DNA of 41,948 nucleotides from Candidatus Kapaibacterium sp. (GCA_031550405.1 JAVBOP010000034.1:1-41948), one strand, 5' to 3'. Positions 242 through 40,796 are shown, counted from the stretch's first letter. Notes: generated by a model not told the origin, from the sequence alone. Numbers and translations: made by a program.

Positions 242-263
242 TATATGAATAAAAATTCATATA
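242..263. repeat. Iterated palindrome site
   Basis: TATATGAA TAAAAA TTCATATA, between convergent genes. Confidence 0.85.
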
Positions 264-316
264 TTTGGACATTATTTTATTAATATGGCAAGTTGCAAAA
301 CCAGCCTGAATTAAAT

Positions 317-362
317 AAAACATAGCTCATTAATAATGCAGAATTAATGAGCTATATGTTTA
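317..362. terminator. Probable bidirectional intrinsic terminator
   Basis: Hairpin aaaacatagctcattaat...attaatgagctatatgtttt between convergent genes. Confidence 0.6.
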
Positions 363-381
363 TATGGTCTACATAAGCAGC

Positions 382-1569
382 TTATTTTAGAAGGCTTAGC
401 CCATGCGACAAATCGGCGGTTAAATCATCAACGTTTTCGATGCCAATAGCCAGACGCACAAGACCATCCGTAATCGATGCTGCATTGCGCGCATCTGATC
501 CCATAAGCACGTGTGTCATTGATGCTGGGTGCTGGATAAGGCTCTCAATGCCGCCAAGCGAAACAGCCAACTGGATAACAGAAACATTATTCATCAATGT
601 CTTGCCTGCCTCAATGCCGCCTTTAAGCTCGAATGCAATAAGCGAGCCGGCACCTTTCATTTGCTTCAAACCAAGCTCATATTGCGGATGCGATTTCAAG
701 CCGGGATACATAACCCATGCCACAGCTGGATGTTTCTCCAGATACTCGGCTATTTTCTGGGCATTCTTCTGCTGCTGCTCAACACGAAGCTTTAGCGTCT
801 TCAAGCCGCGATGCACAAGAAAGGCATTGAATGGGTCAATAACGCCGCCGAAATGGTTCATCATTTTTCTGAAATGCTCATACTCGCTCTCTTCTTTCAA
901 AACGATAGCGCCAGCCACAACATCCGCATGGCCATTCAAAAATTTGGTCATACTGTGGATGATATAATCCGCTCCAAGCTCGAAAGGGCGCTGCAATACA
1001 GGACTTGCAAAAGTATTGTCAACGGCATATTTAATGCCGGACTGTTTGGCGAGCTTGCCAATAGCTTCAATATCAGCCATTACCATTGTCGGATTGCCCG
1101 GCGTTTCGATAAGAATCAGTCTGGTATTCGGCTTAATAGCCTTTTTGACCTCGTCGGTATTTTCAGCATCAACAAATGTAGTTTCAATATTAAAGGCAGG
1201 CATGACATTTTGCAAAAGCGTTGCCGTTGAGCCATATATCGACTTGCTTGCTATCAGATGGTCGCCCGATTTCAGCACGGAAGCGATAAGCGTATGCACG
1301 GCTGCCATACCGCTTGCACAGCCAATAGCCTTGGCGCCGCCTTCAAGAATGGCAATAGCATCTTCCATTGCAGCAACCGTCGGATTGCTTATGCGTGTGT
1401 AAATATAGCCTGCTTCTTCGCCCTGAAACAGGCGTGCGCCATGGTCGGCATCTTTAAATCTAAAAGTAGAGGTTTGATAAATTGGCGTAACGACAGCGCC
1501 ATTGGGATCGCTTGTGATACCTGCATGTACGCACTGTGTATCAATAGCCATTTTCCTAACATTATCCAT
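382..1569 (-). CDS. megL: PLP-dependent Cys/Met metabolism lyase, methionine gamma-lyase-like
   Basis: Motifs YTRISNPT, SGMAA, ETPGNP, DNTFASP, PLP lysine HSMTKFLNGHAD and AVSLGG; 395 aa. Confidence 0.8.
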   Translation of the reverse strand: MDNVRKMAIDTQCVHAGITSDPNGAVVTPIYQTSTFRFKDADHGARLFQGEEAGYIYTRISNPTVAAMEDAIAILEGGAKAIGCASGMAAVHTLIASVLKSGDHLIASKSIYGSTATLLQNVMPAFNIETTFVDAENTDEVKKAIKPNTRLILIETPGNPTMVMADIEAIGKLAKQSGIKYAVDNTFASPVLQRPFELGADYIIHSMTKFLNGHADVVAGAIVLKEESEYEHFRKMMNHFGGVIDPFNAFLVHRGLKTLKLRVEQQQKNAQKIAEYLEKHPAVAWVMYPGLKSHPQYELGLKQMKGAGSLIAFELKGGIEAGKTLMNNVSVIQLAVSLGGIESLIQHPASMTHVLMGSDARNAASITDGLVRLAIGIENVDDLTADLSHGLSLLK

Positions 1570-1661
1570 GTTATATCCTGTGTTTTCTTGTAAAAATATA
1601 TTAATGTTGCAAAGATAACAAAAAAATGCGAATGAACAAGCCTTGATATATAGCCATTACA

Positions 1662-1683
1662 ATTATGAATATTTTTTAATAAA
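1662..1683. repeat. Iterated palindrome site
   Basis: ATTATGAA TATTTT TTAATAAA, between divergent genes. Confidence 0.8.
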
Positions 1684-1789
1684 AAACGCAGATTGAAATT
1701 ATATATATAGTCTACTATTTAAATATATCTGAAATTTTTGTATTTTTAATATGTTCTTAAACAACATTCATAAATAACTGCGAAAACCT

Positions 1790-2635
1790 ATGAACAAAAT
1801 AATATATGCACAGAGTATCTCTGATAATGTCAAAAAATTTATAATCGATGCGCCGGCTATTGCTAAAAAGCATAAACCGGGGCAGTTTGTTATTTTGCGG
1901 ATTGCCGAAAATGGCGAACGCATACCGCTCACAATCGCTGATTCTGATTCCGATGCTGGCACTATCTCTATTATAGTACAGGGAGTTGGAAAAACTACCT
2001 ATATGCTGCTGCAACTTGGCGAAGGCGATAATATTTTGGATTTGGTCGGTCCGCTGGGCAAGCCTACGCATATCGAAAACTATGGCAAATGCGTAGTTAT
2101 CGGCGGCGGAGTTGGAACGGCTATTGCGTATCCAACGGCGAAAGCGTTGAAAGAAGCGGGCAATCATGTAACGGTGATTATCGGCGGGCGGAGCAGGGAA
2201 TATGCCATACTGGATAGCGAGATGCGGCAATTTGCCGACAATGTGTTTATCACGACGGATGATGGTTCGGCAGGCATGAAGGGGTTTGTTACCGATAAGT
2301 TGAAAGAAATAATAGAGATACAGCCACCTGATTTCGTTCTTGCAATTGGTCCGATACCTATGATGGCATCTGTGGCTAATATGACTAAGCCATATAAAAT
2401 TAAAACAGTTGTAAGTTTGAACCCAATTATGCTTGATGGTACTGGCATGTGCGGCGGATGTCGTGCTATTGTTGACAATAAAAATGTATTTGTATGCGTA
2501 GATGGACCTGAATTTGATGCACATCTTGTTGATTTTGACACACTTATGAAGCGAAACCAAATATATTTTAGAGAGGAACATGCTTCTCGTCACATTTGCC
2601 GGCTTAAACTGCAACTTGTCAATATTTTTATTTAA
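1790..2635 (+). CDS. Sulfide dehydrogenase / NfnA-like FAD/NAD-binding 2Fe-2S subunit
   Basis: PGQFVILR, ERIPLTIAD, GPLG, GGGVG and DGTGMCGGCR...VCVDGPEFD (SudB/NfnA/PyrK family). Confidence 0.85.
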   Translation: MNKIIYAQSISDNVKKFIIDAPAIAKKHKPGQFVILRIAENGERIPLTIADSDSDAGTISIIVQGVGKTTYMLLQLGEGDNILDLVGPLGKPTHIENYGKCVVIGGGVGTAIAYPTAKALKEAGNHVTVIIGGRSREYAILDSEMRQFADNVFITTDDGSAGMKGFVTDKLKEIIEIQPPDFVLAIGPIPMMASVANMTKPYKIKTVVSLNPIMLDGTGMCGGCRAIVDNKNVFVCVDGPEFDAHLVDFDTLMKRNQIYFREEHASRHICRLKLQLVNIFI

Positions 2636-2776
2636 TCAGTTGTAAAAAATTGATATATTAAGGCAATGGACAGATGGAATATCTGTTTCGTTTCGTGGTT
2701 ATATTGCAAGCAATAGTCCGAGAGTATTTTTATAGATATTTTTAGTATATTTGCTATGGTTGCGGTTGAGGCGAAC

Positions 2777-2800
2777 ATTTATGAATAAAAATTCATAAAT
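2777..2800. repeat. Iterated palindrome site
   Basis: ATTTATGAA TAAAAA TTCATAAAT, perfect 9-bp arms. Confidence 0.9.
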
Positions 2801-2844: not shown

Positions 2845-4122
2845 ATGCAAAAAATTTCTATCAAATTTGCTTTGGAAGCGGAAAAATTGCTGGCAGAGCA
2901 ACAATATAATGAGGCAATCAGGCTTTGCGAACGTGGACTTGAAATTTATCCGGATTATTCAAGTGCTGCTATATTGCTGGCAAAAGCCTGTTTCTTTCAT
3001 GGAGAAATTGATAGAGCCAAAGAAGTTATTGATGTGGCGTGCTACCAGTTTCCTGCGAATGTAGCAATTGCCCAGATCAAGGATAAAATTTATAACCACT
3101 CATTAATTCAGGAAGATAGCGCTGGCAATATTTTTCAGGAAGAAAACAGTTTTGAAATTGTAGATAACCACAATGACAACGAAGATGATTTTTCTCTACA
3201 TATTGAAGAAATAAAAAATTTGACAAATAAATTGAAGCAAGTTAGTCAGGAGAGCATTGATTCTGAAAATAGCGCTGAAATGACAGGAATTTCAAATTTT
3301 TTTGAAATAAAAAGCGAAGATGAAACGTATAATATTCCTGATGCTGAAAATAATTTGGCAGATGACGGAATGAGCTTGGAAAGTATGGAAAATGCCGATG
3401 ATATTATTGAGCAAGATACTGAAAATACTGACTCTTACGAAATCGAAAAAAATGATGCGGAAACATATTTTCCGGAAAATATTTTGACAGAATTTGCGGT
3501 GGATACTTTAGATGAGACAAAAGGCGATAATGATGAAAACGATGCAATGGAAGTGGAAAGTGTTGAAAATACTAATGTTGAGAAAATAGAATATTTTGAT
3601 GAATATGAAAAAAATATATTTGCCAAAGCATTTAGAAAATCTAAAAACATACCTCAGGATAATTCCAATAAGATAAGTAAGTTATATCAAATCGACCTAA
3701 AATTTCCGCGTGAAAAATCTAACATTAAAATTCAACCGGATGTTTTCGAAAATATAAAACTTGACATGGATTTTTCAAAAGCTGATTTTTTTAATTTTGG
3801 TGTCGTTGATGACGAAGAAAAATTAAAAAATATTCATAATCCTGATGAATTAATCGACGAAAAGGCTCAAGAATTTTTGAATTTATCCAAACAATTAGAA
3901 AATGCTCAAGTTACTTTAGCAGAAGAGAGTTATGATGATCAGGAGCCTGACAGTGAGGACACTCCGCTGGTTGCAAGCGAAACAATGGCAAAAATATTTA
4001 CAAAGCAAAAAGCATATAAACAGGCAATAAAAATATATGAAATGCTGATAGAAGAAAAGCCCGAAAAAGCTGACTTTTATCACGAACAAATCGAAATATT
4101 GACAAAAGTTAATAATCCTTAA
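2845..4122 (+). CDS. TPR protein with a long acidic linker
   Basis: N-terminal TPR (AIRLCERGLEIYPDYSSAAILLAKA), D/E-rich middle, C-terminal TPR (SETMAKIFTKQKAYKQAIKIYEML). Confidence 0.75.
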   Translation: MQKISIKFALEAEKLLAEQQYNEAIRLCERGLEIYPDYSSAAILLAKACFFHGEIDRAKEVIDVACYQFPANVAIAQIKDKIYNHSLIQEDSAGNIFQEENSFEIVDNHNDNEDDFSLHIEEIKNLTNKLKQVSQESIDSENSAEMTGISNFFEIKSEDETYNIPDAENNLADDGMSLESMENADDIIEQDTENTDSYEIEKNDAETYFPENILTEFAVDTLDETKGDNDENDAMEVESVENTNVEKIEYFDEYEKNIFAKAFRKSKNIPQDNSNKISKLYQIDLKFPREKSNIKIQPDVFENIKLDMDFSKADFFNFGVVDDEEKLKNIHNPDELIDEKAQEFLNLSKQLENAQVTLAEESYDDQEPDSEDTPLVASETMAKIFTKQKAYKQAIKIYEMLIEEKPEKADFYHEQIEILTKVNNP

Positions 4123-6069: not shown

Positions 6070-6093
6070 CATTATGAATATTTTTTAATAATG
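6070..6093. repeat. Iterated palindrome site
   Basis: CATTATGAA TATTTT TTAATAATG, immediately after a stop codon, between convergent genes. Confidence 0.85.
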
Positions 6094-6436: not shown

Positions 6437-9220
6437 CTATTTCAAATTAGCAAGATTCTCTTTATTCTTCTTCAAACTCTCCTGCATTGAAGCGAGTTTT
6501 TCACGTTCGTTTTGAACAACTTCCGGCGCTGCATTATTAACAAATTTTTCATTATTCAACTTGTTTTCGCAACCACGAATATTGCCCTCAAGCCTCGCAA
6601 TTTCCTTCTCCAAACGCTGCCTTTCCTTCTCAACATCAATGCTTCCAGCGATAACAAGATGCACTTCTATTTCGCGAAATACTGTCGAAGCAACGCCTTC
6701 GGGCTTTTCTGCATTTATCTTTACTTCCAATGTGTCAAGTTTACATAAAGTCTTGATTATTTCCGCCAAATTTGCAAATAAAATTAAACTTTCTTCATTT
6801 TTAACAGAAATAATTGCCGGCATTTTTTGGTTTGGTGCAATATTCATAGAGGCACGCAGCTTGCGTATTTCCTCAACAATAGCTTGAACTAACTCGAACT
6901 GTTCCTCAATTTTCGGATTGATTTCAGCTTTGTTCGGCTTTGGAAAATCAGTGGATAAAATGCTTATATTTTCATCACGATCTTTAACTAAATGATACAG
7001 TTCTTCCGTAATAAACGGCATAATTGGATGCAGAATTATTAATATTTGTTCATAAATTTCGCTGACAAATTGCATATAGTTTGCATGTTCTTCATCATTT
7101 TTGCCAGCAAGCTGTACTTTCATAATTTCAACATACCAATCGCAGAAATCACGCCAAATGAAGCTATATAACAATTTAGCATATTCCGTAACTTTATAAT
7201 TATCAAGTGCTTCGTTGATTTTCTCAACCGTAGAATTGAAACGCGACAATATCCATTTATCGGCAATGCTAAGCTCATTAATATCTAATTTTTTGGTCGG
7301 CTTCATGGTCGCGGCTTCGAGCTTCATTTGCAAAAAACGTCCCGAATTCCACACTTTATTCGCAAAATTTCTACCTATTTCCATCGATGCAATATCCTGA
7401 TGCTCAACATCGACATCCATACGCACATCCTGCCCGAGCGGTGCAATATAAAGCATTGTGAAACGCACGGCATCAGCACCATATTTAGCAATAATATTCA
7501 GCGGATCGGGCGAATTACCGAGCGATTTCGACAGCTTGCGACCTTGTCCATCACGAATTATGCTTGTAAAATAAACATTTTTAAATGGTACTCTACTTTT
7601 TGTATCAAATTTTTTGGTAGCAATAATCATTCTCGCAACCCAGAAAAATATGATTTCCGGTGCAGTAACAAGCAAATCGGTAGGAAGAAATTTGTGCAGC
7701 GAATTATTCCCCTTCTCTGAAGGGGTGGCAGACGTAGTCTGACGGGGTAGTTTATTGTTATTCATACAACACCCCGTCCCTTCGGGACACCCCTCTACAA
7801 GAGGGGAATTTCCTTCCCAACCCATAGTAGTCAAAGGCCACAACCACGACGAAAACCAAGTATCAAGTGAATCAGGATCTTGCGTAAGCGGCTTATTATG
7901 AATAAGATTTAATTTTTCTCGTGCTTCATCTTCATTTTTTGCGGCTGTACATCTGCCATCTTCGGTATAATAAACAGGAATGCGGTGTCCCCACCATAAT
8001 TGCCGAGAAATACACCAATCGCGAATGCCCGTCATCCAATGCTCATAAGTCTTAACCCAGTGATTTGGATAAAATTTTATTTCCCCATTAAGCACAACCT
8101 CTAATGCTTCCTTAACAAGCGGCTGCATTTTCACGAACCATTGGTCGCTGAGATATGGTTCTACTGGTTCACCACCACGTTGCGAAAAACCAACATTATG
8201 AGTATAATCTTCTATTTTTTCAATTAAATTCTTAGCCTTCAATTGTTCCAATACTGCCTTTCTTGCGTCGAATCTGTCCATTCCGTTAAATTCGCCAGCA
8301 AGTTCGTTCATCGTGCCATCTGGGTTAATTGTATTAATTATTTCAAGGTTATGACGCTCGCCAACAAGAAAATCATTAGGATCATGAGCAGGTGTAATTT
8401 TCACGCAGCCAGTGCCAAAAGTCGGGTCAGCATAATCATCGCCAACGATTGCAATATATCTATCTGTCAAAGGCACTCTAACTTTCTGTCCTATCATAGA
8501 CTTATAGCGTTCATCATTTGGATTCACAGCAACAGCAGTATCGCCGAAAATCGTTTCAGGGCGTACGGTTGCAACATTCAGATAATTTTTTCCATCTTCA
8601 AAATAATATCGCATAGTATATAAATATTCTTTCACTTCGCGAAATTCTACTTCCTCATCAGAAAGTGCAGTTTGAGCAAGTGGCGACCAATTAATAATGC
8701 GTTTGCCCTTATAAATCAAGCCCTCATCAAATAATTGAATGAAAACATCTTGCACAGCATTTGAAGCAGATTCATCCATTGTGAATAAAGTTTTATCCCA
8801 ATCGACAGCAACACCTAACTCCTTCATTTGCTGCAAGATAATGCCGCCATATTTTTCTTTCCATTCCCAAATTTTTTCTACAAATTTTTCGCGTCCTAAA
8901 TCATATCGGGAAATATTTTCCTTGCGTAGTTCGGCTTCAACTTTAGATTGCGTAGCAATTCCCGCATGATCTATGCCCGGAAACCAGCACACTTCATATC
9001 CTTGCATTTTTTTCGAGCGGATGTAAAGGTCTTGTAATGTTAGATTTAGCACATGTCCAAAGTGCAAAATGCCGGTTACATTCGGCGGCGGCATGAGTAT
9101 GCTGTAAGGTGGTTTTGTGGAATTGGTATCAGCGACGAACAATTTATTATCGAGCCATTTTTTATACCAGCTTTTTTCAGCTGTTTGCGGTTCAAAACTT
9201 TTAGGAAATTCTTTTGCCAT
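6437..9220 (-). CDS. valS: Valine--tRNA ligase
   Basis: PPPNVTGILHFGH (HIGH), DWCISRQLWWGH, KLSKS (KMSKS), C-terminal coiled coil. Confidence 0.97.
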   Translation of the reverse strand: MAKEFPKSFEPQTAEKSWYKKWLDNKLFVADTNSTKPPYSILMPPPNVTGILHFGHVLNLTLQDLYIRSKKMQGYEVCWFPGIDHAGIATQSKVEAELRKENISRYDLGREKFVEKIWEWKEKYGGIILQQMKELGVAVDWDKTLFTMDESASNAVQDVFIQLFDEGLIYKGKRIINWSPLAQTALSDEEVEFREVKEYLYTMRYYFEDGKNYLNVATVRPETIFGDTAVAVNPNDERYKSMIGQKVRVPLTDRYIAIVGDDYADPTFGTGCVKITPAHDPNDFLVGERHNLEIINTINPDGTMNELAGEFNGMDRFDARKAVLEQLKAKNLIEKIEDYTHNVGFSQRGGEPVEPYLSDQWFVKMQPLVKEALEVVLNGEIKFYPNHWVKTYEHWMTGIRDWCISRQLWWGHRIPVYYTEDGRCTAAKNEDEAREKLNLIHNKPLTQDPDSLDTWFSSWLWPLTTMGWEGNSPLVEGCPEGTGCCMNNNKLPRQTTSATPSEKGNNSLHKFLPTDLLVTAPEIIFFWVARMIIATKKFDTKSRVPFKNVYFTSIIRDGQGRKLSKSLGNSPDPLNIIAKYGADAVRFTMLYIAPLGQDVRMDVDVEHQDIASMEIGRNFANKVWNSGRFLQMKLEAATMKPTKKLDINELSIADKWILSRFNSTVEKINEALDNYKVTEYAKLLYSFIWRDFCDWYVEIMKVQLAGKNDEEHANYMQFVSEIYEQILIILHPIMPFITEELYHLVKDRDENISILSTDFPKPNKAEINPKIEEQFELVQAIVEEIRKLRASMNIAPNQKMPAIISVKNEESLILFANLAEIIKTLCKLDTLEVKINAEKPEGVASTVFREIEVHLVIAGSIDVEKERQRLEKEIARLEGNIRGCENKLNNEKFVNNAAPEVVQNEREKLASMQESLKKNKENLANLK
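7035..7056. repeat. Iterated palindrome site inside valS
   Basis: ATTATTAA TATTTG TTCATAAA. Confidence 0.6.
7706..7810. repeat. GC-rich REP-like palindromic element inserted in frame in valS
   Basis: ATTCCCCT...AGGGGAAT inverted ends and internal hairpins; AATT at 7702-7705 and 7807-7810; 105 bp = 35 codons. Confidence 0.8.
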
Positions 9221-9436: not shown

Positions 9437-9460
9437 TTTTATGAATATTTTTTCATAAAA
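9437..9460. repeat. Iterated palindrome site
   Basis: TTTTATGAA TATTTT TTCATAAAA, perfect 9-bp arms. Confidence 0.9.
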
Positions 9461-17036: not shown

Positions 17037-17041
17037 AAAGC

Positions 17042-27483: not shown

Positions 27484-27489
27484 ATAGCC

Positions 27490-27825: not shown

Positions 27826-27899
27826 TTTAGAACCTTATTGTGATAAAAAATTGTTATCTTGGTTTCAAATTTAATTAATTTTTCTAAAAATAAAAAATA

Positions 27900-28187: not shown

Positions 28188-28348
28188 GGTCAAAATTCAT
28201 ACCTGTTGTCAGCTGTCAATCATGGCAACTATAATCAACCTTATATTTTATCTAAAAAAATGTATAAATAATAAAAAATGCTTATATTTGTTTGAAAATA
28301 TTCGTATATTTACATTCTTAAAAATGTATAAGTGCAGCATAATATACA

Positions 28349-28370
28349 TTTATTAAAAAAAAATCATAAT
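28349..28370. repeat. Iterated palindrome site (one mismatch)
   Basis: TTTATTAA AAAAAA ATCATAAT, upstream of ftsZ. Confidence 0.65.
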
Positions 28371-28416
28371 TCATCACAGAGATAAAGTTACAATAAATAC
28401 CATAGATGGGGGGAAT

Positions 28417-29874: not shown

Positions 29875-29893
29875 AAGTAAGGCAAAAACAATC

Positions 29894-29925
29894 AAAAGCT
29901 CGCAGGTCTCTTCCCGCGAGCTTTT
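29894..29925. terminator. Bidirectional terminator after ftsZ
   Basis: aaaagctcgc...gcgagctttt. Confidence 0.7.
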
Positions 29926-30024
29926 GGCATATATAAGCAATAATAAGCATTAAGTTAAGTGCAAGGAGTCTATGGGAAATAGCTTAGTGCGATAGATTTT
30001 CCTGTCCTGCAGTATATAATAGAG

Positions 30025-30618: not shown

Positions 30619-30722
30619 GTTATTCCACGCATTAATTTATTAAATAGACATTGTATGGATGACGATATTTTTTATATATTATTGTCCTATAGAAAATAGG
30701 TCGTGCCTCATACGCGTTGATT

Positions 30723-30967
30723 TATCCATTTCACCAATACAAATTTGCAGCTGTTTTGTTTCTCCAAAAAATGCTATATTTGCGTATGGATTCTAAGATA
30801 AAAATCATTAATGTTGCAGAAAGCGAACTATAGCTTGAAAATTTATTAAGAAAATCTTGAACAATTAAGTGATTTTTTATCCGATTTAACAAATTCATTG
30901 ATAAAAGAGGAGGCAGCTTCAATATGCTTCATGCTATTATAATACAAATTTGTATTAGCAAATGGTA
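30723..30967 (+). mobile_element. Non-autonomous IS630 deletion derivative (MITE-like)
   Basis: Left part matches about 26139-26269 and right part about 27146-27262, including the right TIR aaatttgtattagcaaatggta. Confidence 0.85.
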
Positions 30968-31834
30968 TTACTTGTTTTTTATTAGTTTTAATTGGATAAA
31001 AGAAAGAATTAATAAAAGAAAAAACAGAAAATATGCAATTGCAGCGGCATACCCCATCGAATCTGACTTTTCAAAAGCATTCGTAAATACCATATAAACA
31101 AGGGTAGTAGTTGAATATAACGGTCCGCCTTTGGTCATCACGTATATCTCCATAAAAATTTGAAAAGATTTAATAACATTGATAACCAATACAAAAACTA
31201 AAGAAGATTTTATCATTGGTATAGTGATTTTCCGCAGCACCAAAAATGGTTTTGCTCCCATCAGAACTGCGGAATCATATAGCGATTGCGGAATTGTTTG
31301 CATTGCAGCTAAAAAAATTATCATATAATATCCGCAAGCCGACCAAATATCCATGAGCATAATTGCAGGCAACGCAGTGCTGGGGTCTGATAGCCAGCCC
31401 AGATTTGAGGCGGGCAATCCAAGCGTTTCTAAAATTTTATTAATATATCCGTTCTTCGCATATAAGTTCGTAAAAATTAAAGATATTACAACAACAGAGG
31501 TTATAGCTGGTGCAAAAAATGAAGCTCGGAAAAATTCTTTGAATTTGACAGCCTTGCTATTCAGCAGTGTCGCCAAACCTAAGGCTATGGCAACGGTAAA
31601 CGGCACTGTGCCAAGTGTGAAAATAGAAGTATTAGCCAACGCTTTCCAGAATAGCGGATCGATAAACATTTTTTCATAATTAGCAAGACCAATAAAATTA
31701 TTTTCATTTGTAATGGAATCATAGCTGTTCAAACTCAAAAAACCTGTATAGAGCAGCGGATATAGCCAAAAAATGATGAAAATAATGCACCATGGAAGCA
31801 ATAAAAGTATTGTATTTGCCCTGTTCTTTTTCAT
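30968..31834 (-). CDS. Carbohydrate ABC transporter permease (MalF/UgpA-like)
   Basis: FIGLANY, EAA-like loop IPQSLYDSAVLMGA, TKGGPLYSTTT; 6 TM segments; start could be 31846. Confidence 0.9.
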   Translation of the reverse strand: MKKNRANTILLLLPWCIIFIIFWLYPLLYTGFLSLNSYDSITNENNFIGLANYEKMFIDPLFWKALANTSIFTLGTVPFTVAIALGLATLLNSKAVKFKEFFRASFFAPAITSVVVISLIFTNLYAKNGYINKILETLGLPASNLGWLSDPSTALPAIMLMDIWSACGYYMIIFLAAMQTIPQSLYDSAVLMGAKPFLVLRKITIPMIKSSLVFVLVINVIKSFQIFMEIYVMTKGGPLYSTTTLVYMVFTNAFEKSDSMGYAAAIAYFLFFLLLILSFIQLKLIKNK

Positions 31835-31904
31835 TGTTATTTTCAATTAAGTTTATCCATACAAGCAAGATAGTGCATAATTGCCATATCATGATATTCT
31901 ATTT

Positions 31905-33050
31905 CTACCACGCCATTTCATATATAGCTTCAATATCTTGCTGCGACAGCTTCACAAGCCCACCGATAACAGGCGCTATACCCAAGCATTTTTGCACTAT
32001 TGCCGGAAGATCCTCCTTCATAACCCCAAGCTCTTTGATACTCACAGGTATTCCCCATTTTTTGAATTTTGACACCATATTCTGCACTCCCTGCTCAACA
32101 GAATCGGCACCCCAAACATTTTTTGCCCAGCGAGCAAACTGCTGTGGATTGGCTCTGCTGCAATAAAGCAGCCATGACGGAAATATAGCCGCTAAGCCCG
32201 GACCGTGCGCTACATCTGGATATATGGCACTAATGGCATGTTGCAACTTGTGCGTTGCCCAATCGCCGCCATTCATTCCTGCCGCTGAAATGCCATTTAA
32301 TGCCAAAACCGATGCCCATGAGAGATTTGCCCGCCAGTCATAGTCCGTCGGCGAGATTTGCAATTCATCTAAACACCTTATAATAGTGCGCATTAGCGCT
32401 TCACTTATTGATATTGTGGTTTCCTGTCCTGTGCCTGTGAAATAGTTTTCCATGCAGTGCGTTATAGCGTCAACTCCCCCATTCACCGTCTGATTCCAAG
32501 GCAGGCTAATCTGCACCGAAGGATCTATAATTGACACTTTGGGGAAATTCAAGTCAGAATATAAAGACAGCTTGAGCTGCATTGCCTTGTTTGAAAGCAC
32601 AGCATTGCGATTCGATTCCGTGCCCGTGCCGGATAGAGTTAATATCGTAAACACCGGCAACGCTTTCTGCGGAACTACGCTCTTGTCAAAAGCCTGCCAA
32701 ACGTCGTCAAGATAATATCCAACGGCAATCGATTTGCCCTCGTCTATAACCGAACCTCCGCCTATAGCAAGCACAGCCTGTAGATTATGAATTTTTATTA
32801 ATTCAATACCTTCTCGCGCATGTTCCACAATAGGATTGGGACGAACTCCCCAATGCTCAATAAATCTTATGTCATTATTATTTAAGGACTTAACGGCTGT
32901 ATCATACACGCCGTTGTGCCTGATAGAGCCTGAGCCGGCAAGCAGTAACACGGAGGATATGCCCTTTTTGCGTAATTCATCGCCAATCTGCGAAATAGTG
33001 TTTTTGCCGAATATAATCGTTGTTGGGTTGTAAAATGAAAAATTATTCAT
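31905..33050 (-). CDS. Iron-containing alcohol dehydrogenase (butanol dehydrogenase-like)
   Basis: MNNFSFYNPTTIIFG, AIGGGSVID, DAITHCME, THKLQH...HG. Confidence 0.9.
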   Translation of the reverse strand: MNNFSFYNPTTIIFGKNTISQIGDELRKKGISSVLLLAGSGSIRHNGVYDTAVKSLNNNDIRFIEHWGVRPNPIVEHAREGIELIKIHNLQAVLAIGGGSVIDEGKSIAVGYYLDDVWQAFDKSVVPQKALPVFTILTLSGTGTESNRNAVLSNKAMQLKLSLYSDLNFPKVSIIDPSVQISLPWNQTVNGGVDAITHCMENYFTGTGQETTISISEALMRTIIRCLDELQISPTDYDWRANLSWASVLALNGISAAGMNGGDWATHKLQHAISAIYPDVAHGPGLAAIFPSWLLYCSRANPQQFARWAKNVWGADSVEQGVQNMVSKFKKWGIPVSIKELGVMKEDLPAIVQKCLGIAPVIGGLVKLSQQDIEAIYEMAW

Positions 33051-33163
33051 AATTTCTACCTCTAAAATTAGAATTTGCAATAATATTGATACAAAATTAA
33101 CATTATTTTTATATTTTAGCATTATTTTAGCATTGAAAATTATTATAATAAGGATTTTTAAGT

Positions 33164-33571
33164 ATGAAAAGTATTAAAAATATAAGCCAACTGCGGGTGC
33201 GCTATGCGGAAACGGATAAAATGGGTGTGGTGTATAATGCTAATTATCTTGTTTATTTTGAAACTGGGCGCAATGCACTGATGCGCGCTAACGGCCTGCC
33301 TTATACATTCTTTGAAAGCATAGGATATTATTTTCCACTAATAGATGCGTATGCAAAGTATTATATATCAGCGGCTTACGATGACCTTCTTGATATCGAA
33401 ACCGAATTTACTTTTGAAAATTCTCCGATAATTAAAATTAATTACAAAATATTTCGAGAAGGCAATTTGCTTTGCGAAGGCTACACTCGCCACACATTTG
33501 TATCGCAATCAACGATGAAGCCAGTGCGCCCTCCCAAGCAATTTGCAGCTCTATTCAAACAATCTTTATAA
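33164..33571 (+). CDS. Acyl-CoA thioesterase (YbgC/4HBT family)
   Basis: RVRYAETDKMGVVYNANYLVYFETGR. Confidence 0.9.
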   Translation: MKSIKNISQLRVRYAETDKMGVVYNANYLVYFETGRNALMRANGLPYTFFESIGYYFPLIDAYAKYYISAAYDDLLDIETEFTFENSPIIKINYKIFREGNLLCEGYTRHTFVSQSTMKPVRPPKQFAALFKQSL

Positions 33572-33620
33572 ATATTTTTTAAGAAACAATAAATATAGAC
33601 AAATTAAAATTTTAACAAAA

Positions 33621-33992
33621 ATGAGAATATTATTTCTAATTGGTGCAGGTAGCTTTATAGGTGGAATTTTTCGCTATTTATTGTCCCAATGCGTGCATGC
33701 TAAATTTTTCGCCAAATTTCCGCTCGGAACATTGATTGTCAATATTATCGGCTGCTTTTGCATAGGATTGTTTTTCGGATTGGCAAATAAAATAAATTTT
33801 AGCAACGAATGGAAACTATTTTTAGTAACAGGATTGCTCGGCGGATTTACCACATTTTCAGCATTCTCAAACGACACTGTTTTATTATTTAAAGACGGTC
33901 AGGTTTTATACGCTGCTATTTACATATTTTCCAGTATTTTCTTAGGCTTAGCAGCAACGTTCATCGGGAATGCCATAATAAAAAATATTTAA
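33621..33992 (+). CDS. crcB: Fluoride efflux channel Fluc/CrcB
   Basis: GGIFRY, FPLGTLIVNIIGC, TGLLGGFTTFSAF. Confidence 0.95.
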   Translation: MRILFLIGAGSFIGGIFRYLLSQCVHAKFFAKFPLGTLIVNIIGCFCIGLFFGLANKINFSNEWKLFLVTGLLGGFTTFSAFSNDTVLLFKDGQVLYAAIYIFSSIFLGLAATFIGNAIIKNI

Positions 33993-34237
33993 TATCGACA
34001 ACATTTATTGGAAAACCTTATGTAGTAAAAATGACGGATTCAGGAAACATCAAGACAAATTCTTATATACTTTTAAATAATATTTTCCTTTTTTTTAATA
34101 AATCTTGTAAGTCAACCGGTATTTTATTCTTGTCTTTAATTCACCGTAACTTCCAATAGAATCAAAAATATATTTTTATTCGTAAAACAAATTTGTAATA
34201 TTTACGTCTATTTACAACAAATTTAACAGGCAATAAC

Positions 34238-35308
34238 ATGAGTGAAATCATATTAAAAATTAGAAAGAAAAAAAGCAAGGTACAGTTAATCCAAGCTCAG
34301 CAGATATTGCAGCAAGAAATGGATAAGCGAGCGACGGAATTGCAGAATGAATTTGAGTCTGTTACTGTGGCGGATAGCGAAACCCAGCATGAAATTGAAA
34401 CTGAGCGAATCGTTGATGAAGAGCTTGAACAGATGGGGGCTCTTTCTGATATTGATAAAAAAATAGAAGATGAGCCTGAAGAATTAAAAAATATTCATAA
34501 TTCAGAAGAGGCTGCTCATGATTTGGCAAATAACGAGGACGTTTTGCCAAAAATTCAAGCACGAAACAGGACCATTTATACGGAAATATATACCATAGCT
34601 GATAATGATAAACCTATTGAAATTGAAATAGATAGAGCAAAAAATAATTCTATTGACATGGAAATTGCCCGTCAGCAGATTCAAGATGCCTATGATAAAG
34701 GTTTTGCAGATTGCACGGAAATGGCGAGCATTAATGCAGAGGCGAAAATACAGGAGGCGTACAAGTGGGTGCGGCGTATTGACCAGCTGATGTTTGAGTT
34801 GCGCGAACATTATTCTGATGCTATTGATGGGTTTAAAAATAAATTGCTTGATGTTGCAGCGGTCATTTCTGAGGCAATAATTGACAAGGAAGTGAAGTTA
34901 GATAATAATATTATTTTACAGCAAGTTAAGAGAGCCATAGAAGAATTGGATGACGATGTTATTTTTAAAATCCATGCCAATCCTGCGGACATTGAGTGCT
35001 TAAAAACAGCCCAATCATCGCTGACGAAAAATGATGCCATGTTTGCTAACACAATGCTTATAAGCGATGCCAATGTTAAACAGGGTGGCTGCATTTTGTA
35101 CACTTCGGCTGGCACAATTGATGCTCGAATTAATTCGCAGCTTGAGATAATTAAACAAAATATTACTGAATTTGACCGCGAAAAACGTGCCGAACACTCA
35201 AATAGTGATTACAATGATTTCGATATTATACCTGATGTTAGCACTCCTCTGACCGAATACGAAGAATATATTTCACAGCAAAAAGCTGAAGATACAAGCG
35301 AATTATAG
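34238..35308 (+). CDS. fliH: Flagellar assembly protein FliH/SctL family with long acidic extensions
   Basis: AYDKGF (AxxxG repeat), IHANPADI, DANVKQGGCILYTSAGTIDARINSQL. Confidence 0.8.
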   Translation: MSEIILKIRKKKSKVQLIQAQQILQQEMDKRATELQNEFESVTVADSETQHEIETERIVDEELEQMGALSDIDKKIEDEPEELKNIHNSEEAAHDLANNEDVLPKIQARNRTIYTEIYTIADNDKPIEIEIDRAKNNSIDMEIARQQIQDAYDKGFADCTEMASINAEAKIQEAYKWVRRIDQLMFELREHYSDAIDGFKNKLLDVAAVISEAIIDKEVKLDNNIILQQVKRAIEELDDDVIFKIHANPADIECLKTAQSSLTKNDAMFANTMLISDANVKQGGCILYTSAGTIDARINSQLEIIKQNITEFDREKRAEHSNSDYNDFDIIPDVSTPLTEYEEYISQQKAEDTSEL

Positions 35309-35453
35309 CAATATTTATAAGGCTTGTCTCTTTAATACCAAGCACAGTGGACAGCTACCTCAAATATATTACTTTACTTGATATTATGCGGAAGTCGTGG
35401 ATAGCACAAATTAGGGATATGTTTTTTTAATTATGAAGGTAGTTATTTTTACT

Positions 35454-35477
35454 ATTTATGAATTTTTATTCATAAAT
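35454..35477. repeat. Iterated palindrome site
   Basis: ATTTATGAA TTTTTA TTCATAAAT, perfect 9-bp arms. Confidence 0.9.
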
Positions 35478-35643
35478 CTATCGTATGTGTTGGCATTGTT
35501 CCACTTTCAAAAAAGATGCAGTTACCTTTCCCGTTATACCGCAAGAGAAAAAAAAGTTGTTGTTTTAAAATATTTTTCACTAAATTGCAGTTGTTGAAGA
35601 TACATAACTATTATTACTTTTTAAAACTAAATTGAGAGGGCTT

Positions 35644-37704
35644 ATGTCTGAAGAAAAAAAATTTGTTCCTTTCGTTCCTGCCGATTCCAATTTGCCTGAA
35701 CTTACTATTAAAGCATTGGTATTAGGGCTTATAATGGCAGTGGTGTTAGGGGCGGCGAATGCCTATTTAGGGCTAAAGGCGGGCATGACCATTGCAGCAA
35801 CATATCCTGCGGCTGTTATCGGCATGGCGTTACTTAAAATTATGAAAGGCTCGGTGCTTGAAGAAAATATCTCAAGAACTGTCGGGTCTATTGGTGAATC
35901 TATTGCTGCTGGCGCTATCTTTACGCTGCCGGCATTTTATGTTGCCGGAATATGGCATCCGTTCCTTACAACTTCAAGCTATATCACAGCTTCTGTAATT
36001 CTTGTGCTGGGTGGTGTGCTTGGCATTATGTTCGTAGCATTGCTGCGCAGGGTAATGGTCGAGGACAAGGACTTGCCATTTCCTGAATCTGTTGCTGCTG
36101 CCGAGATACATAAAACAGGCCGCAGCGGCAAAGGTGGCTCGAAATTTTTATTTGGAGCTATGGGCTTGGGTGCATTAATTAAATTGCTTGGCGAATTTAA
36201 GTTCTTTCCTGCAAGCTGGGAAAAATTTATCGCATTTACCAAGCAAACCATAACAGGCAGCGCATTTCAGGGGCAAGGCGGCTTATTGCTCAGCTCGCCC
36301 GGCATCAGTCCGGCATACATGGGTGTTGGCTATATTATTGGTGCAAGATTAGGCGCACTTAATTTTTCCGGCGGTTTAATTGCCTGGGGACTGTTAACTC
36401 CTATAATTTATTATTTCTTATCTCCAGCGCTTGATTTGAATGCTTGGATAAACATGCTGGTATCAAATGGCGGCTTAACTTTGCAGGAAGCAACTGCCAG
36501 AGTAAATGATCCTGTATTCCAAATGAATGGCGTATGGAAGTCAATAGTAAGGCCTATAGCTATTGGCGGCATGCTGGTTGGTGCATGTTATACGCTTTTC
36601 AATATGAGAAAATCTCTTATTGCCGGCATAGTCCGCTCAGTATCTGATGTCAAAAAAGCAGCAACAGGCGGCAATACAGCAACAAGCAGGATAGAAAAGG
36701 ATATACCTTTTAACTGGATATTAATTGCAATTATAGCGGTTGCAGTAGCGGTATTCCTTTTAGTGCATTTGATATTCAGCTCACTGTTTATGTCAGCAGC
36801 ATGCGCATTGCTGGTGGTCATACTGTCCTTCTTCTTCTCTGCGGTATCAGGATATCTGGTCGGCATTATGGGTTCAAGCAACAATCCTATCAGTGGCGTT
36901 ACATTAACAGCTCTTGTTATAACCGCTTTGATTCTGGTGGCATTAGGCGTGAATGAAGAGATGGGCGGCGTTGCCTCTGTACTTATAGTTGCAGCAATAG
37001 TGTGCGTTGCATCGGCTGTTGGCGGCGAAATGTTCCAGGATCTGAAGGCAGGACACATACTCGGTGGTACGCCCTGGAAAATGCAGGTTGGCGATATAGT
37101 AGGCGTAGTATTGGCTGGCTCTGTAATGTTTTTTGTTCTATCATTCCTCAATGATGGTGATATAGCAAAAGGCTTGCAGGAAGGCTATGAAGGCGGCTTT
37201 GGCAGCAAGTCATTAGCGGCACCGCAGGCAAGTTTAATGGCGATATTATCGCAGGGTATCGTAAGCGGTCACATGGCATGGCCTCTTATCATAGTCGGTA
37301 TGCTTATGGGTATTGCATTGATATGTATGCAGGTTAAAAGCCCTATGCTTGTTTCCGTCGGTATGTATCTGCCGCTCGAAACAACATTTGCTATTTTCCT
37401 TGGCGGCATTATACGCTATATATGCGACTCATACTCGAAGAACAAAGGATTTAATGACTGGCAGAAAGTGCGTATCGGCAATGTCGGCGTATTGCTGGCA
37501 TCGGGATTGATTGCCGGCGAGGCGTTGATGGGGCTTGTGTTTGCAGGCTTTGCAGTGGGCAATATATTCCCACCAGCAGTGTTCCCGGGCGCTCCATTCG
37601 TTATCAGCATACTGGTATTGTGCCTCATTGCATTTATACTGGTTAAAATACCAAACGACAATGCAGGCAGACCTGACGAACCAGCCACACCGTCCGGCAT
37701 GTAA
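35644..37704 (+). CDS. Oligopeptide transporter, OPT family
   Basis: ANAYLGLKAG, LPFPESVA, GSSNNPISG, QDLKAG, APQASLM; many TM helices. Confidence 0.93.
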   Translation: MSEEKKFVPFVPADSNLPELTIKALVLGLIMAVVLGAANAYLGLKAGMTIAATYPAAVIGMALLKIMKGSVLEENISRTVGSIGESIAAGAIFTLPAFYVAGIWHPFLTTSSYITASVILVLGGVLGIMFVALLRRVMVEDKDLPFPESVAAAEIHKTGRSGKGGSKFLFGAMGLGALIKLLGEFKFFPASWEKFIAFTKQTITGSAFQGQGGLLLSSPGISPAYMGVGYIIGARLGALNFSGGLIAWGLLTPIIYYFLSPALDLNAWINMLVSNGGLTLQEATARVNDPVFQMNGVWKSIVRPIAIGGMLVGACYTLFNMRKSLIAGIVRSVSDVKKAATGGNTATSRIEKDIPFNWILIAIIAVAVAVFLLVHLIFSSLFMSAACALLVVILSFFFSAVSGYLVGIMGSSNNPISGVTLTALVITALILVALGVNEEMGGVASVLIVAAIVCVASAVGGEMFQDLKAGHILGGTPWKMQVGDIVGVVLAGSVMFFVLSFLNDGDIAKGLQEGYEGGFGSKSLAAPQASLMAILSQGIVSGHMAWPLIIVGMLMGIALICMQVKSPMLVSVGMYLPLETTFAIFLGGIIRYICDSYSKNKGFNDWQKVRIGNVGVLLASGLIAGEALMGLVFAGFAVGNIFPPAVFPGAPFVISILVLCLIAFILVKIPNDNAGRPDEPATPSGM

Positions 37705-37761: not shown

Positions 37762-37986
37762 CTGTGGCTCCCCCATGTGGTGTAGTATGGAAGGCTGTAA
37801 CATCATTATATGGCAAAAACCAAATGCTATTCCTAATACGAATATATGATTGAATGTTCGTTACAATTACTGATGTTGCATCAAAATAATTCAATCATGT
37901 ATCGGATTTTATATGATATATTTATATTTCTGTATAAAATGACAATATGGTAACATTACAGATATTATTAAGCTATAGATTGTAGT

Positions 37987-38008
37987 TTTATGAATAAAAA
38001 TTAATAAA
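37987..38008. repeat. Iterated palindrome site
   Basis: TTTATGAA TAAAAA TTAATAAA. Confidence 0.85.
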
Positions 38009-38080
38009 TCGCAGTGTCGACATCATATAATTTACAGTATATTTTCATTTACATCAATTGATACAATATTAAATGGTAAA

Positions 38081-38096: not shown

Positions 38097-38132
38097 TGTA
38101 ATAAATGCGTTTCATAAATTTATTTGTCAATA

Positions 38133-38154
38133 ATTATTAAAAAATATTCATAGA
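38133..38154. repeat. Iterated palindrome site
   Basis: ATTATTAA AAAATA TTCATAGA, 2 bp before the fliG ATG. Confidence 0.75.
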
Positions 38155-38156
38155 GT

Positions 38157-39197: not shown

Positions 39198-39306
39198 TTT
39201 TTGTTGTTGTAGGCAAGAAGATGGTTATAAAAAAATGAAAACTTAGAATACAGTATTTTATTTTTTAGGAATAATTCCGTGATATCTTGATTGACAATCA
39301 ATTATG

Positions 39307-39328
39307 TTTATTAACAAAAATTCATAAT
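39307..39328. repeat. Iterated palindrome site
   Basis: TTTATTAA CAAAAA TTCATAAT. Confidence 0.85.
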
Positions 39329-39428
39329 TCTGTCTAAAAGCCTTGCATATATTGTCTTTTCTTTTTTTATATAGATAAAATAATAGTAATTTTGCTGTGT
39401 TAGAAAATGCACATTATGGTTTGAACAG

Positions 39429-40226
39429 ATGATAGAACTTTTTAAAATTGGATTTATTTCGTTTACTTTATTTGACTTGCTGGATATAGCTTTGGTAACT
39501 CTAATATTTTATTGGATTTACAAAGCTTTGAAAGATACTCTCGCAATTCAGGTTCTATTCGGTTTGGTCATTATTATCGGACTTTCATTTGTTGCCGAAG
39601 CGATCAATTTGAAATCCATAAACTGGCTACTGCGCTTGCTCTCAGACATTTGGATTCTGGCATTTGTAATTTTATTTCAGCCTGAAATCAGAAAAATGCT
39701 TGTCCAATTCACAAGAAGTCCAATTTTTCATCTTTTCATAAAAACTAATTTAATTGAATCGGTAGATGAGGTTGTTGATGCTGCAATAGAAATGAGCAAA
39801 CATCATATTGGCGCTCTCATTGTATTCCCGCAAACGCAAGATGTATCAATGGTTTCCATAGATGCAGGTATTAAAATTGACGCCATTTTATCCAAAGAAC
39901 TTCTGCTTTCTATTTTCAATACTAAAGCTCCTTTACACGATGGAGCAGTTATTGTTGATAAAAAAAGAATTATTTCATCGGCAAGATGTATTTTGCCTCT
40001 TTCAAACGAAAGGCGAGTTGGCAATCGTTTGCTCGGCACAAGACACCGCGCCGGTCTTGGCATGACGGAAAAAATTGATGCTATTGTGCTGATTGTGTCA
40101 GAGGAAACCGGCAGCATTTCAATAGCCATGAACGGAAAATTAGAATTAGATATTCCTCATTCAAAACTAAAATCAAAATTAAATGAAAAATTCATATTAG
40201 CTTCGCCCGTAACAAAAAAAATATGA
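39429..40226 (+). CDS. cdaA: Diadenylate cyclase CdaA/DacA
   Basis: Three N-terminal TM helices, FQPEIR, PLHDGAV, GTRHRA, VSEETG. Confidence 0.95.
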   Translation: MIELFKIGFISFTLFDLLDIALVTLIFYWIYKALKDTLAIQVLFGLVIIIGLSFVAEAINLKSINWLLRLLSDIWILAFVILFQPEIRKMLVQFTRSPIFHLFIKTNLIESVDEVVDAAIEMSKHHIGALIVFPQTQDVSMVSIDAGIKIDAILSKELLLSIFNTKAPLHDGAVIVDKKRIISSARCILPLSNERRVGNRLLGTRHRAGLGMTEKIDAIVLIVSEETGSISIAMNGKLELDIPHSKLKSKLNEKFILASPVTKKI

Positions 40227-40315
40227 GAGAACAGAGCGGAGAATTAGTCTTTGTTTATTTCAATGAATTTAGCTAATTTTGTTTGTATATTTTTTGATTT
40301 TAAATATAGATTTTT

Positions 40316-40720
40316 ATGATTACAGGACTTAATCACATCGGAATAGCTGTTACTGATTTGGAAGCAGCATTAGAAACGTTTAGAAAAATTTTCCAATTCG
40401 AATCTGTTCACAGAGAAACTGTGGAAGACCAAAAAATTGAAGTGGCCTCTTTCAGCGTTGGCGGGGTATTGATAGAGCTTACTTTCCCAACATCACCCGA
40501 GTCGCCAATCGCCAAATTCATAGAAAAAAACGGCGGCAAAGGCGGCTTGCACCATCTCGCTTTCGAATCGGATAACGTAAATTCTGAATTGCAGCGTTTG
40601 GAAGGCGAAGGCATACAATTAATTGATAAAACGGCGCGGTTGGGTGCGCATGACATGAAAATAGCATTTATGCACCCAAAATCCACAAATGGCGTACTAA
40701 CAGAGATTTGCCAACATTGA
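40316..40720 (+). CDS. mce: Methylmalonyl-CoA epimerase
   Basis: NHIGIAV, SPIAKFIEK, GGLHHLAF, FMHPKSTNGVLTEIC. Confidence 0.93.
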   Translation: MITGLNHIGIAVTDLEAALETFRKIFQFESVHRETVEDQKIEVASFSVGGVLIELTFPTSPESPIAKFIEKNGGKGGLHHLAFESDNVNSELQRLEGEGIQLIDKTARLGAHDMKIAFMHPKSTNGVLTEICQH

Positions 40721-40736
40721 GAATGTATTTGACAAT

Positions 40737-40767
40737 AAAAGCTCGCTATCGAAATAGTGGGCTTTTT
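40737..40767 (+). terminator. Intrinsic terminator after mce
   Basis: aaaagctcgctat-cgaa-atagtgggcttttt. Confidence 0.75.
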
Positions 40768-40774
40768 GCATATA

Positions 40775-40796
40775 TTTATTAATTTAAATTCATAAA
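40775..40796. repeat. Iterated palindrome site
   Basis: TTTATTAA TTTAAA TTCATAAA, just after a terminator. Confidence 0.85.

Follow-up and report, generated by a model that had tools for sequence, protein, structure and literature searches.

A 24-bp gapped palindrome repeated some 1,350 times in one Kapaibacterium-like genome arose in place and may be the site of a dimeric DNA-binding protein

Introduction

DNA words that are hyper-abundant and have grown in place form a very short list, namely the highly iterated palindrome HIP1, the DNA uptake sequences (DUS) of Neisseriaceae together with the uptake signal sequences (USS) of Pasteurellaceae, and words of the Chi or KOPS type. HIP1 is still without a known function after decades. 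DUS and USS are asymmetric 9-12-mers, served by a pilus-borne receptor, that occur about once per 1-2 kb, evenly and in a lineage-specific manner, and that arise by in-place substitution, including within genes and with effects on the encoded proteins. For HIP1 (GCGATCGC) of cyanobacteria, one study describes a palindrome that is 15- to 300-fold over-represented within and between reading frames, with no detectable role in gene expression and with a proposed role in the chromosome or nucleoid (Xu, Lawrence and Durand 2018, PMC5861425). Here we describe a word of comparable abundance in a 41,948-bp stretch of DNA from Candidatus Kapaibacterium sp. (GCA_031550405.1, JAVBOP010000034.1:1-41948), referred to as the window, and in the genome to which it belongs. 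A first-pass annotation of the window had noticed a recurrent palindrome, TATKAA-N6-TTMATA, and had offered two identities for it: a site for an abundant dimeric nucleoid or architecture protein, or the crossover site of a gene-shuffling recombinase.

The word appears to work most like HIP1 and DUS/USS, and it differs from both in being long, gapped and AT-rich, in its 10-fold non-coding bias and in being carried by one genome. Like HIP1, the present word is a hyper-abundant palindrome found inside and outside reading frames and without an evident part in gene expression, being ~50-fold over-represented in genes and more so between them; within frames, 279 deep coding sites were found compared to ~5 expected. 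HIP1, however, is an ungapped GC-rich 8-mer common to most cyanobacteria, whereas the present word is a 24-bp, AT-rich, gapped one with a fixed 6-bp A-tract centre, is ~10-fold denser outside genes and was seen in one of the ~740 phylum genomes searched. With DUS and USS it shares abundance, occurrence on both strands, even spread and an origin in place within genes. In contrast to them, its unit is a strict two-armed palindrome, and no type IV or competence-pilus machinery was found in the 91.6%-complete genome.

Results

A hyper-abundant word of fixed geometry

The window is contig C48 of a fragmented assembly (G000; 2.555 Mb in 235 contigs, 37% G+C, 91.6% complete). The best matches of its Ffh protein are metagenome-assembled genomes labelled Ignavibacteria or Candidatus Kapaibacterium (73-78% identity); the reads containing the window come from an invertebrate-gut metagenome, the organism being an uncultured gut bacterium. 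All 15 exact copies of TATKAA-N6-TTMATA reported by the first-pass annotation are present, with the 18-mer starting 2 bp inside each of the 22-mers originally described, at 244, 1664, 2780, 6073, 7037, 9440, 10282, 17047, 18470, 21257, 35457, 37989, 38135, 39309 and 40777. In 100 dinucleotide-preserving shuffles of the window, the mean was 0.20 and the largest count 1. The 13 one-mismatch copies reported earlier were likewise all recovered, and five further near-copies were found (4097, 14344, 29480, 38099 and 41269); one-mismatch matches in the window number 33, compared to 2.29 expected and 7 in the richest shuffle.

The excess extends to the whole genome, where a sharp peak at a 6-bp spacer had been set beforehand as the test. 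For spacers of 0 to 12 bp, G000 contains 9, 6, 7, 3, 10, 9, 644, 39, 15, 8, 16, 5 and 6 matches to TATKAA-Nx-TTMATA, respectively. Alignment of the 644 copies showed that the unit is 24 bp long rather than the 22 bp first proposed (consensus A-W-T-TATKAA-W-A-W-W-T-W-TTMATA-A-W-T), with nothing conserved beyond these 24 bp, in agreement with the earlier remark that the flanks are unrelated. Using a weight matrix with a cut-off of 14 bits, we counted 1,353-1,357 sites, compared to 18 in a Markov-3 simulation of the genome; the enrichment therefore holds over a Markov background. These sites are dispersed single copies at a density of ~1 per 1.9 kb and a median spacing of 1,360 bp.

We next considered the anatomy of the unit. 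The spacer, which had been described as A/T-rich in the window, is nearly pure A/T across the genome copies and favours A runs (AAAATA 383, AAAAAA 218 and TAAAAA 160, each counted with its complement). Position 7 of the arm is G or T only, the pairs of arms being GC in 212 exact copies, TC in 195, GA in 175 and TA in 62, with every other combination at 8 or fewer. The two arms are negatively associated at this position, also in intergenic sites alone, where GC pairs number 333 compared to 372 expected and double-T (TA) pairs 81 compared to 120, with the mixed G/A and T/C forms in excess. The under-representation of double-T sites in intergenic DNA as well suggests a requirement for at least one G arm. 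Away from full sites, half-site words are no commoner than expected (for example ATTTATGAA, 153 vs 140), and the unit is therefore two arms at a fixed distance.

Base pairing is not selected in this palindrome. The spacer is anti-complementary (0.277 vs 0.484 and 0.239 vs 0.494), positions 7 and 18 are complementary in 0.441 of sites compared to 0.516 expected, and symmetric pairs are not clearly above chance, the largest excess being at positions 2/23 (0.558 vs 0.496 expected). These figures bear directly on the possibility that the word acts as RNA, either as an AU-rich hairpin or as a protein-bound word in untranslated regions that works in either transcription direction. Copies do lie in 5' and 3' untranslated positions beside coding sequences, two are under RNA contigs, and a palindrome reads alike on both transcripts. 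We nevertheless find an RNA-level element scarcely credible, since positions 7/18 are mismatched (G-A or T-C) in 57% of the exact sites with no covariation, sites occur upstream of promoters in divergent gaps, and the A-tract shows only a weak orientation bias with respect to genes (246 vs 181). A hairpin or terminator identity was ruled out by the unpaired arms, by the 43% occupancy of divergent gaps and by the separate GC-rich hairpins that stand beside sites. The arms are AT-rich with frequent mismatches, unlike the GC-rich stem and T-run, at 3' ends only, of an intrinsic terminator.

The resemblance to the ARG box of ArgR/AhrC (TGAAT-W4-ATTCA), to which the first-pass annotation had drawn attention, was followed up as well. 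The central 14-18 bp of many copies fit that box, but T is accepted in place of G, and Arg_repressor (PF01316) gave 0 matches in the 91.6%-complete genome in a search whose control was positive in 9 of 14 known genomes, so this lead fell away. An ARG-box regulon was also rejected on grounds of arrangement, the ~1,350 copies being dispersed single sites beside unrelated genes and in convergent gaps, not paired at arginine promoters.

The copies arose in place

How the copies arose is the main new result: they grew in place, by substitution from predisposed sequence and not by transposition. Gene calls were crude (longest non-overlapping open reading frames [ORFs], n=2,009, 82% of the genome). 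Deep within ORFs of at least 900 nt we found 279 sites, compared to 4-7 after codon shuffling (~50-fold); these lie in all three frames and spell recurrent peptides. Scores of non-coding sites are top-heavy, near the consensus. The copy in valS (7034-7057) aligns to 12 orthologues without an indel, reading FVSEIYEQILIILHP in G000 and FATSIYENILKILHP in the nearest relative. In a first sample of coding sites, 53 of 55 spanning ortholog alignments were free of gaps as long as four residues where the site lies. We then compared coding sites with G002, which is among the closest relatives sampled and of which 1.145 Mb was used for ortholog comparison: 105 of 137 were gap-free, the other 32 had 1-11 gap columns, and a gap of 8 codons, the size of an inserted unit, occurred at 0 of 137. 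The orthologous 24-mers of G002 score a mean of -8.4 bits, compared to -26.9 for random coding 24-mers, and share 15 of 24 bases, indicating that sites grew by substitution from sequence that was already predisposed. Proteins of G000 and G002 are also less alike where a site is encoded, with an amino-acid identity of 0.371 there and of 0.490 over the 25 flanking residues to each side (n=131, Wilcoxon p=8e-9).

A miniature mobile palindrome (of the REP/REPIN, MITE or RPE type, i.e., repetitive extragenic palindromic, miniature inverted-repeat transposable or Rickettsia palindromic element), spread by a transposase such as a RAYT-like Y1 protein, would also yield hundreds of intergenic palindromic copies. 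REP/BIME elements with their RAYT transposases, and RPEs, resemble the word described here in being short and palindromic and in numbering hundreds, for the most part near the ends of genes. Some REP/BIME elements of E. coli bind nucleoid proteins. G000 does encode a 215-aa Y1_Tnp-like protein (28.4 bits vs a cut-off of 23) with a site 10 bp past its stop codon, no contig has a higher site density than the one that encodes it (C3; 10 in 7.5 kb, p=0.008 uncorrected), and in conserved gene pairs site-bearing gaps tend to be longer than in G002. Several such gaps are, however, about the same length as in G002 (33 vs 31, 32 vs 42, 18 vs 24 and 13 vs 14 bp, G000 given first), and copies in genes arose without indels. 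We found no target-site duplication, there being no direct-repeat excess at any of the boundaries tried, 8-17 bp from the centre. REPs are single-strand paired hairpins spread by copying, whereas the arms here do not covary and no duplications accompany them; RPEs add residues, whereas the coding copies here replace existing codons. Taken together with the unrelated flanks, these findings bear out the earlier view that the word is not a MITE, and render a mobile palindrome very unlikely. The RAYT-like protein was dropped as a driver, its family being present in 24 of 41 genomes (G000 included), among them relatives without motif enrichment. The protein itself, IS200-like or RAYT-like, lies at C3:2358-3002 (L115:1069-1716), with partial paralogues on C37 and C36.

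G000 does contain a separate, GC-rich modular palindrome family that behaves as inserted. One member is an in-frame insertion of ~29-35 residues in valS (window ~7706-7812, minus strand), absent from 12 orthologues, whose DNA is assembled from GC-rich hairpin modules also present elsewhere in the genome (40 blastn-short matches; core words in ~24-36 copies). This genuine palindromic insertion into an essential gene, which the palindromic elements of Rickettsia resemble, is the likelier RAYT partner.

Crossover sites of a tyrosine recombinase (Xer/dif-like or pdif-module-like) that shuffles genes were the second identity offered at the outset. Two arms around a 6-bp centre fit such sites, eight Phage_integrase matches are encoded (one Xer-like at 173 bits), and the arm has TTATGAA in common with the Helicobacter difH arm, although in difH the shared word is 4 bp further from the centre on each side (PMC3325230). 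We compared gaps of at least 25 bp between G000 and G002: 58 of 140 were site-bearing at broken adjacency and 17 of 42 at conserved adjacency (Fisher p=1.0), so that the difference hinted at by a smaller earlier sample (14/26 vs 3/14) was not upheld. Sites in essential genes, as elsewhere deep in genes (279 sites), arose in place. Read joints at sites (e.g., 17066 to 27461 and 21277 to 24269) are artefacts of the repeat, each side being only 20-22 bases long, and ~1,350 active crossover sites would presumably wreck the chromosome. We hold the recombinase proposal to be very improbable indeed.

Gene order is in any case heavily shuffled among genera of the family, with 85 conserved adjacent pairs among 618 reciprocal best hits between G000 and G002, and base composition differs widely between relatives (37% G+C in G000, 25.7% in G002). 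A window neighbour was kept beside ffh or valS in 0 of 23 loci of relatives; without conserved gene order, intergenic alignment around these two genes is impossible. Population and expression data covered 16001-36000 of the window and came from two RNA runs of one study and from a single DNA run, from which the assembly itself may derive. These runs are contigs only, from which transcript ends and levels are not readable and in which uncovered parts carry no weight; within them, no indels were seen at sites.

Copies in the window

The first-pass annotation had placed its copies between convergent genes, after terminators, on either side of promoters and beside unrelated genes. Of the 27 window sites that score at least 14 bits, however, at least 7 are inside genes, those concerned encoding a TPR protein (3818), ValRS (7034), a histidine kinase (10279 and 10650), PolA (23248), Fe-ADH (32783 and 33031) and FliH (34479). 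The 27 copies, given without strand, are as follows.

241-264: copy of 21.0 bits, 117 bp past the stop codon of the Cys/Met pyridoxal-phosphate (PLP)-enzyme gene
1661-1684: copy of 27.0 bits, in a divergent gap
2777-2800: copy of 29.4 bits, 44 bp ahead of the TPR gene start
3818-3841: copy of 17.0 bits, within the TPR gene
6070-6093: copy of 22.0 bits, in a convergent gap, immediately past the DUF3108 stop codon
7034-7057: copy of 26.4 bits, within valS, read in frame as EIYEQILI; not inserted relative to 12 orthologues
9437-9460: copy of 27.5 bits, in a divergent gap
10279-10302: copy of 24.4 bits, in frame within the histidine-kinase gene
10650-10673: copy of 17.5 bits, in frame within the same histidine-kinase gene as the preceding copy
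17044-17067: best copy of the window (30.5 bits), filling a 49-bp gap, 18 bp past the ribBA stop codon and 7 bp before the manC start
18467-18490: copy of 25.8 bits, between the divergent genes ribBA and ffh
21254-21277: copy of 26.5 bits, between the convergent genes gcvT and polA, under an RNA contig and apart from the GC-rich terminator hairpin at ~21157-21190
23248-23271: copy of 15.6 bits, within polA
24266-24289: copy of 22.5 bits, in a divergent gap, 21 bp ahead of a start codon
25158-25181: copy of 20.9 bits, first member of a pair created by a 57-bp local tandem duplication
25215-25238: copy of 26.1 bits, second of this duplicated pair
26726-26749: copy of 19.6 bits, within a 1.15-kb stretch without a long ORF
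27461-27484: copy of 22.6 bits, 5 bp past the cutA stop codon, under an RNA contig
28348-28371: copy of 21.1 bits, 45 bp ahead of the ftsZ start
32783-32806: copy of 14.2 bits, within the Fe-ADH gene
33031-33054: copy of 18.6 bits, within the Fe-ADH gene
34479-34502: copy of 17.7 bits, within fliH
35454-35477: copy of 29.4 bits, between the tandem fliH and OPT transporter genes
37986-38009: copy of 26.5 bits, upstream of fliG
38132-38155: copy of 21.1 bits, its end 1 bp ahead of the fliG start codon
39306-39329: copy of 23.1 bits, between fliG and cdaA
40774-40797: copy of 26.4 bits, 20 bp ahead of the UDG gene start

The tandem duplication with its two palindrome copies spans 25138-25238, and a similar duplicated pair is found at C200:18508-18563. 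Summed contig depth in the DNA run is 6- to 15-fold higher at 24672-25338, 26006-27339 and 30885-30935 than elsewhere. These segments have many variant letters, small indels and internal joints and look like repeated or strain-variable DNA; they include part of the 1.15-kb stretch at 26335-27490, which has no ORF of 90 aa or more.

Placement relative to genes

Intergenic DNA holds 1.75-2.5 sites per kb and genes hold 0.23 per kb, a roughly 10-fold difference. As the first-pass annotation had argued, this is not an ordinary regulon: ~40% of intergenic gaps are occupied regardless of gene orientation (divergent 43%, convergent 41%, tandem 38%), and a promoter element was rejected on the same grounds, convergent gaps and gene interiors being occupied. 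The pressure behind the word is limited by coding constraint and is indifferent to the direction of transcription. Occupancy is 0.37-0.48 for gaps of 25-300 bp, independent of their length, and hence follows the gene boundary and not the base count. Many copies touch or overlap stop codons or end a few bases ahead of start codons; in gaps of at least 250 bp, 52 of 281 sites are no more than 20 bp from a stop codon, compared to 17 for uniform placement. Pairs of sites closer than 100 bp number 21, of which 9 are spaced 64-75 bp apart; several of these have a GC-rich terminator-like hairpin between them, and two stem from tandem duplication on the spot.

A box TAnnTTTG, which we take to be the Bacteroidota-type promoter box, peaks 30-50 nt before gene starts (84 and 98 per 10-nt bin, compared to ~20-25 in the antisense control), and this Kapaibacteria-like lineage seems to use promoters of that type. 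Palindrome copies are scarce in the core promoter itself but pile up to either side, ~55-75 bp upstream and ~50-60 bp downstream of the box. Together with occupancy per gene boundary rather than per base, with the frequent position of sites between a stop codon and a GC-rich terminator hairpin or in pairs 64-75 bp apart around hairpins, and with site-bearing gaps being equally frequent inside and outside conserved gene pairs, this pattern is what a global transcription-factor operator, or a roadblock or insulator at gene boundaries that blocks read-through or the spread of supercoils, could produce. Gaps without promoters (convergent) and gaps without terminators (divergent) are however occupied to the same extent, the promoter-side pile-up may only mirror free space, and the roughly 50-fold enrichment deep within genes is not explained by a function at boundaries. 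RNA contigs cross the sites at 21254 and 27461, so that neither is an obvious transcription stop, although contigs cannot show ends; on 16001-36000, the ends of RNA contigs had no consistent relation to sites. We therefore consider a boundary regulator improbable.

On a larger scale, no contig was significantly poor in sites, and integrase-bearing contigs had normal density. Spacing has a coefficient of variation of 0.82, and any pressure on spacing is mild. Among genes of 600-1200 nt, a deep internal site was found in 17%, 11% and 6% of those with 0, 1 and 2 flanking sites, respectively (p=0.011).

Range among related genomes

We compared G000 with forty related genomes, 400 genomes of the class and 400 of the phylum, ~740 other phylum genomes in all. 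TATKAA-N6-TTMATA occurs 644 times in G000 and 0-24 times in the forty relatives, in which backward-pattern controls gave 0-47. The 400 genomes of the class had no more than 30 matches each, with similar control counts; this set includes an unpublished genome, G394 (18 matches, control 31), on which no claim rests. The stricter TTATGAA-N6-TTCATAA occurs 190 times in G000 and at most once in each of the 400 phylum genomes. G002, at 25.7% G+C, has 30 matches of at least 14 bits per 400 kb, compared to ~210 per 400 kb in G000, and no comparable gapped palindrome was found in 400 kb of G002. Five viral contigs had one match each, which is chance level. Among the matches listed for metagenome contigs were single matches and no related lineage; one contig of 52% GC (L225) has two operator-like sites, and a dense locus (L229) was set aside as an unrelated 100-bp satellite. 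The motif is thus confined to one lineage among the ~740 phylum genomes searched, which are a sample. A literature search found no description of such a motif, weak evidence given that subscription journals were outside its reach.

Lineage specificity, and the even spread across contigs including integrase-bearing ones, are also features expected of an uptake signal, i.e., a palindrome preferred by an uptake or recombination machinery and spread by biased transformation without benefit to the cell. The density of ~1 per 1.9 kb resembles that of DUS and USS, the in-place copies in genes, in all frames and with extra amino-acid change, follow the pattern of USS, the roughly 10-fold intergenic excess is of the order known for DUS, and non-coding scores are top-heavy near the consensus. 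G000 further encodes ComEC, a ComEA-type HHH_3 protein and DprA, although these are widespread in bacteria not known to transform. To our knowledge, every uptake-sequence system uses the pilus route. In the 91.6%-complete genome, secretin, the PilB/PilT-type (T2SSE) ATPase and the N_methyl pilin each had 0 matches, which falls short of proving absence; the pilus route of known uptake-sequence systems is therefore not seen here. Known uptake sequences are, moreover, asymmetric and read singly, whereas half-sites alone are not enriched in G000, and DUS and USS are common to several genera, whereas no second genome among those searched has this word. On balance, we regard uptake-driven spread as doubtful, although it is the chief rival as the source of the pressure.

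Discussion

The palindrome is, with good confidence, a site that is read by a protein on duplex DNA and that evolved in place. Our tentative preference is to see in it the recognition site of a lineage-specific homodimeric protein, perhaps one of chromosome architecture or of self-marking. Of the first-pass proposal of a dimeric architecture-protein site, the dimer-protein part accords best with the data, namely the lack of half-site enrichment, the strict spacing, the position restricted to G or T and the A-tract centre; the architectural role is our inference. G and T share a major-groove keto group, which may explain why either is accepted at position 7 by a protein that reads the duplex. 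Each monomer would read one A-W-T-T-A-T-K-A-A arm in the major groove, with arm centres ~12 bp apart, and the uncontacted A-tract between the arms would give a narrow, bent centre that the protein may bend or clamp. A genome-wide pressure has built the sites by point substitution, at ~1 per 1.9 kb, the word being tolerated mainly in non-coding DNA at gene boundaries and also forced into reading frames. The protein would be an abundant one that organizes or marks the chromosome, along the lines proposed for HIP1 or of the matS/Noc-type sites but at ~20-fold greater numbers. Sites such as matS (bound by MatP) and those of Noc and SlmA are, like this word, palindromic duplex words placed regardless of genes and also found within them, if the word is indeed bound by a protein as we suppose. 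In contrast to the ~1,350 copies on every contig of G000, they are present in tens of copies in confined regions of the chromosome.

Several observations weigh against this assignment to a dimeric protein. No binding protein came to light: no DNA-binding gene specific to G000 turned up, no screen for one having been made. Holding ~1,350 sites of roughly 30 bits by architectural selection needs many small effects, and selfish drive would explain the copy numbers more easily; none of the architectural sites just named approaches the thousands, their numbers being in the tens. The motif is carried by one genome only, which leaves no second genome in which to compare site conservation as was done for HIP1. 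The compensation between flanking and internal sites noted above was absent in longer genes (p=0.79 and 0.88), and adjacent gaps were independent, so that the evidence for a spacing requirement is weak. Distances to start codons, finally, are approximate as they depend on the crude longest-ORF gene calls.

In line with the first-pass annotation, we found no candidate protein in the window, nor was one found in the genome. P0003 (142 aa, 25563-25991, minus strand) was entertained and dropped, being conserved in 40 of 41 genomes and hence not lineage-specific. It has no Pfam family and is 49-79% identical across those genomes. The RNA contig that covers it is deeper than any other in the 20 kb compared (123, with 4-36 for its neighbours), and its nearest Atlas clusters are unnamed, one at 0.88 carrying PcrA_UvrD_tudor. 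P0003 may be an abundant, uncharacterised Tudor-like factor of this bacterial order.

The word can also be placed in a wider frame. It is possible, though we would not lean on it, that Bacteroidota possess a genome-wide system not yet described, for which the palindrome serves as the address, either as a pilus-independent signal for uptake or recombination of self DNA with a dimeric receptor, or as the site of a new nucleoid protein that pins the chromosome about every 2 kb. Were this so, the pressure would have been strong enough to rewrite hundreds of protein segments within one genus-level lineage. That a pressure at the level of DNA alters protein sequence is apparent from the identity of 37% inside sites and 49% beside them. 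The case thereby offers a direct test of chromosome-architecture selection against selfish drive. With its 24 bp, two arms, fixed spacer and position restricted to G or T, the word has an information content high enough to make the protein that reads it easy to fish by affinity. It is also young, being confined to one lineage among ~740 genomes, and the gain or change in specificity of the gene responsible should therefore be traceable once sister genomes exist.

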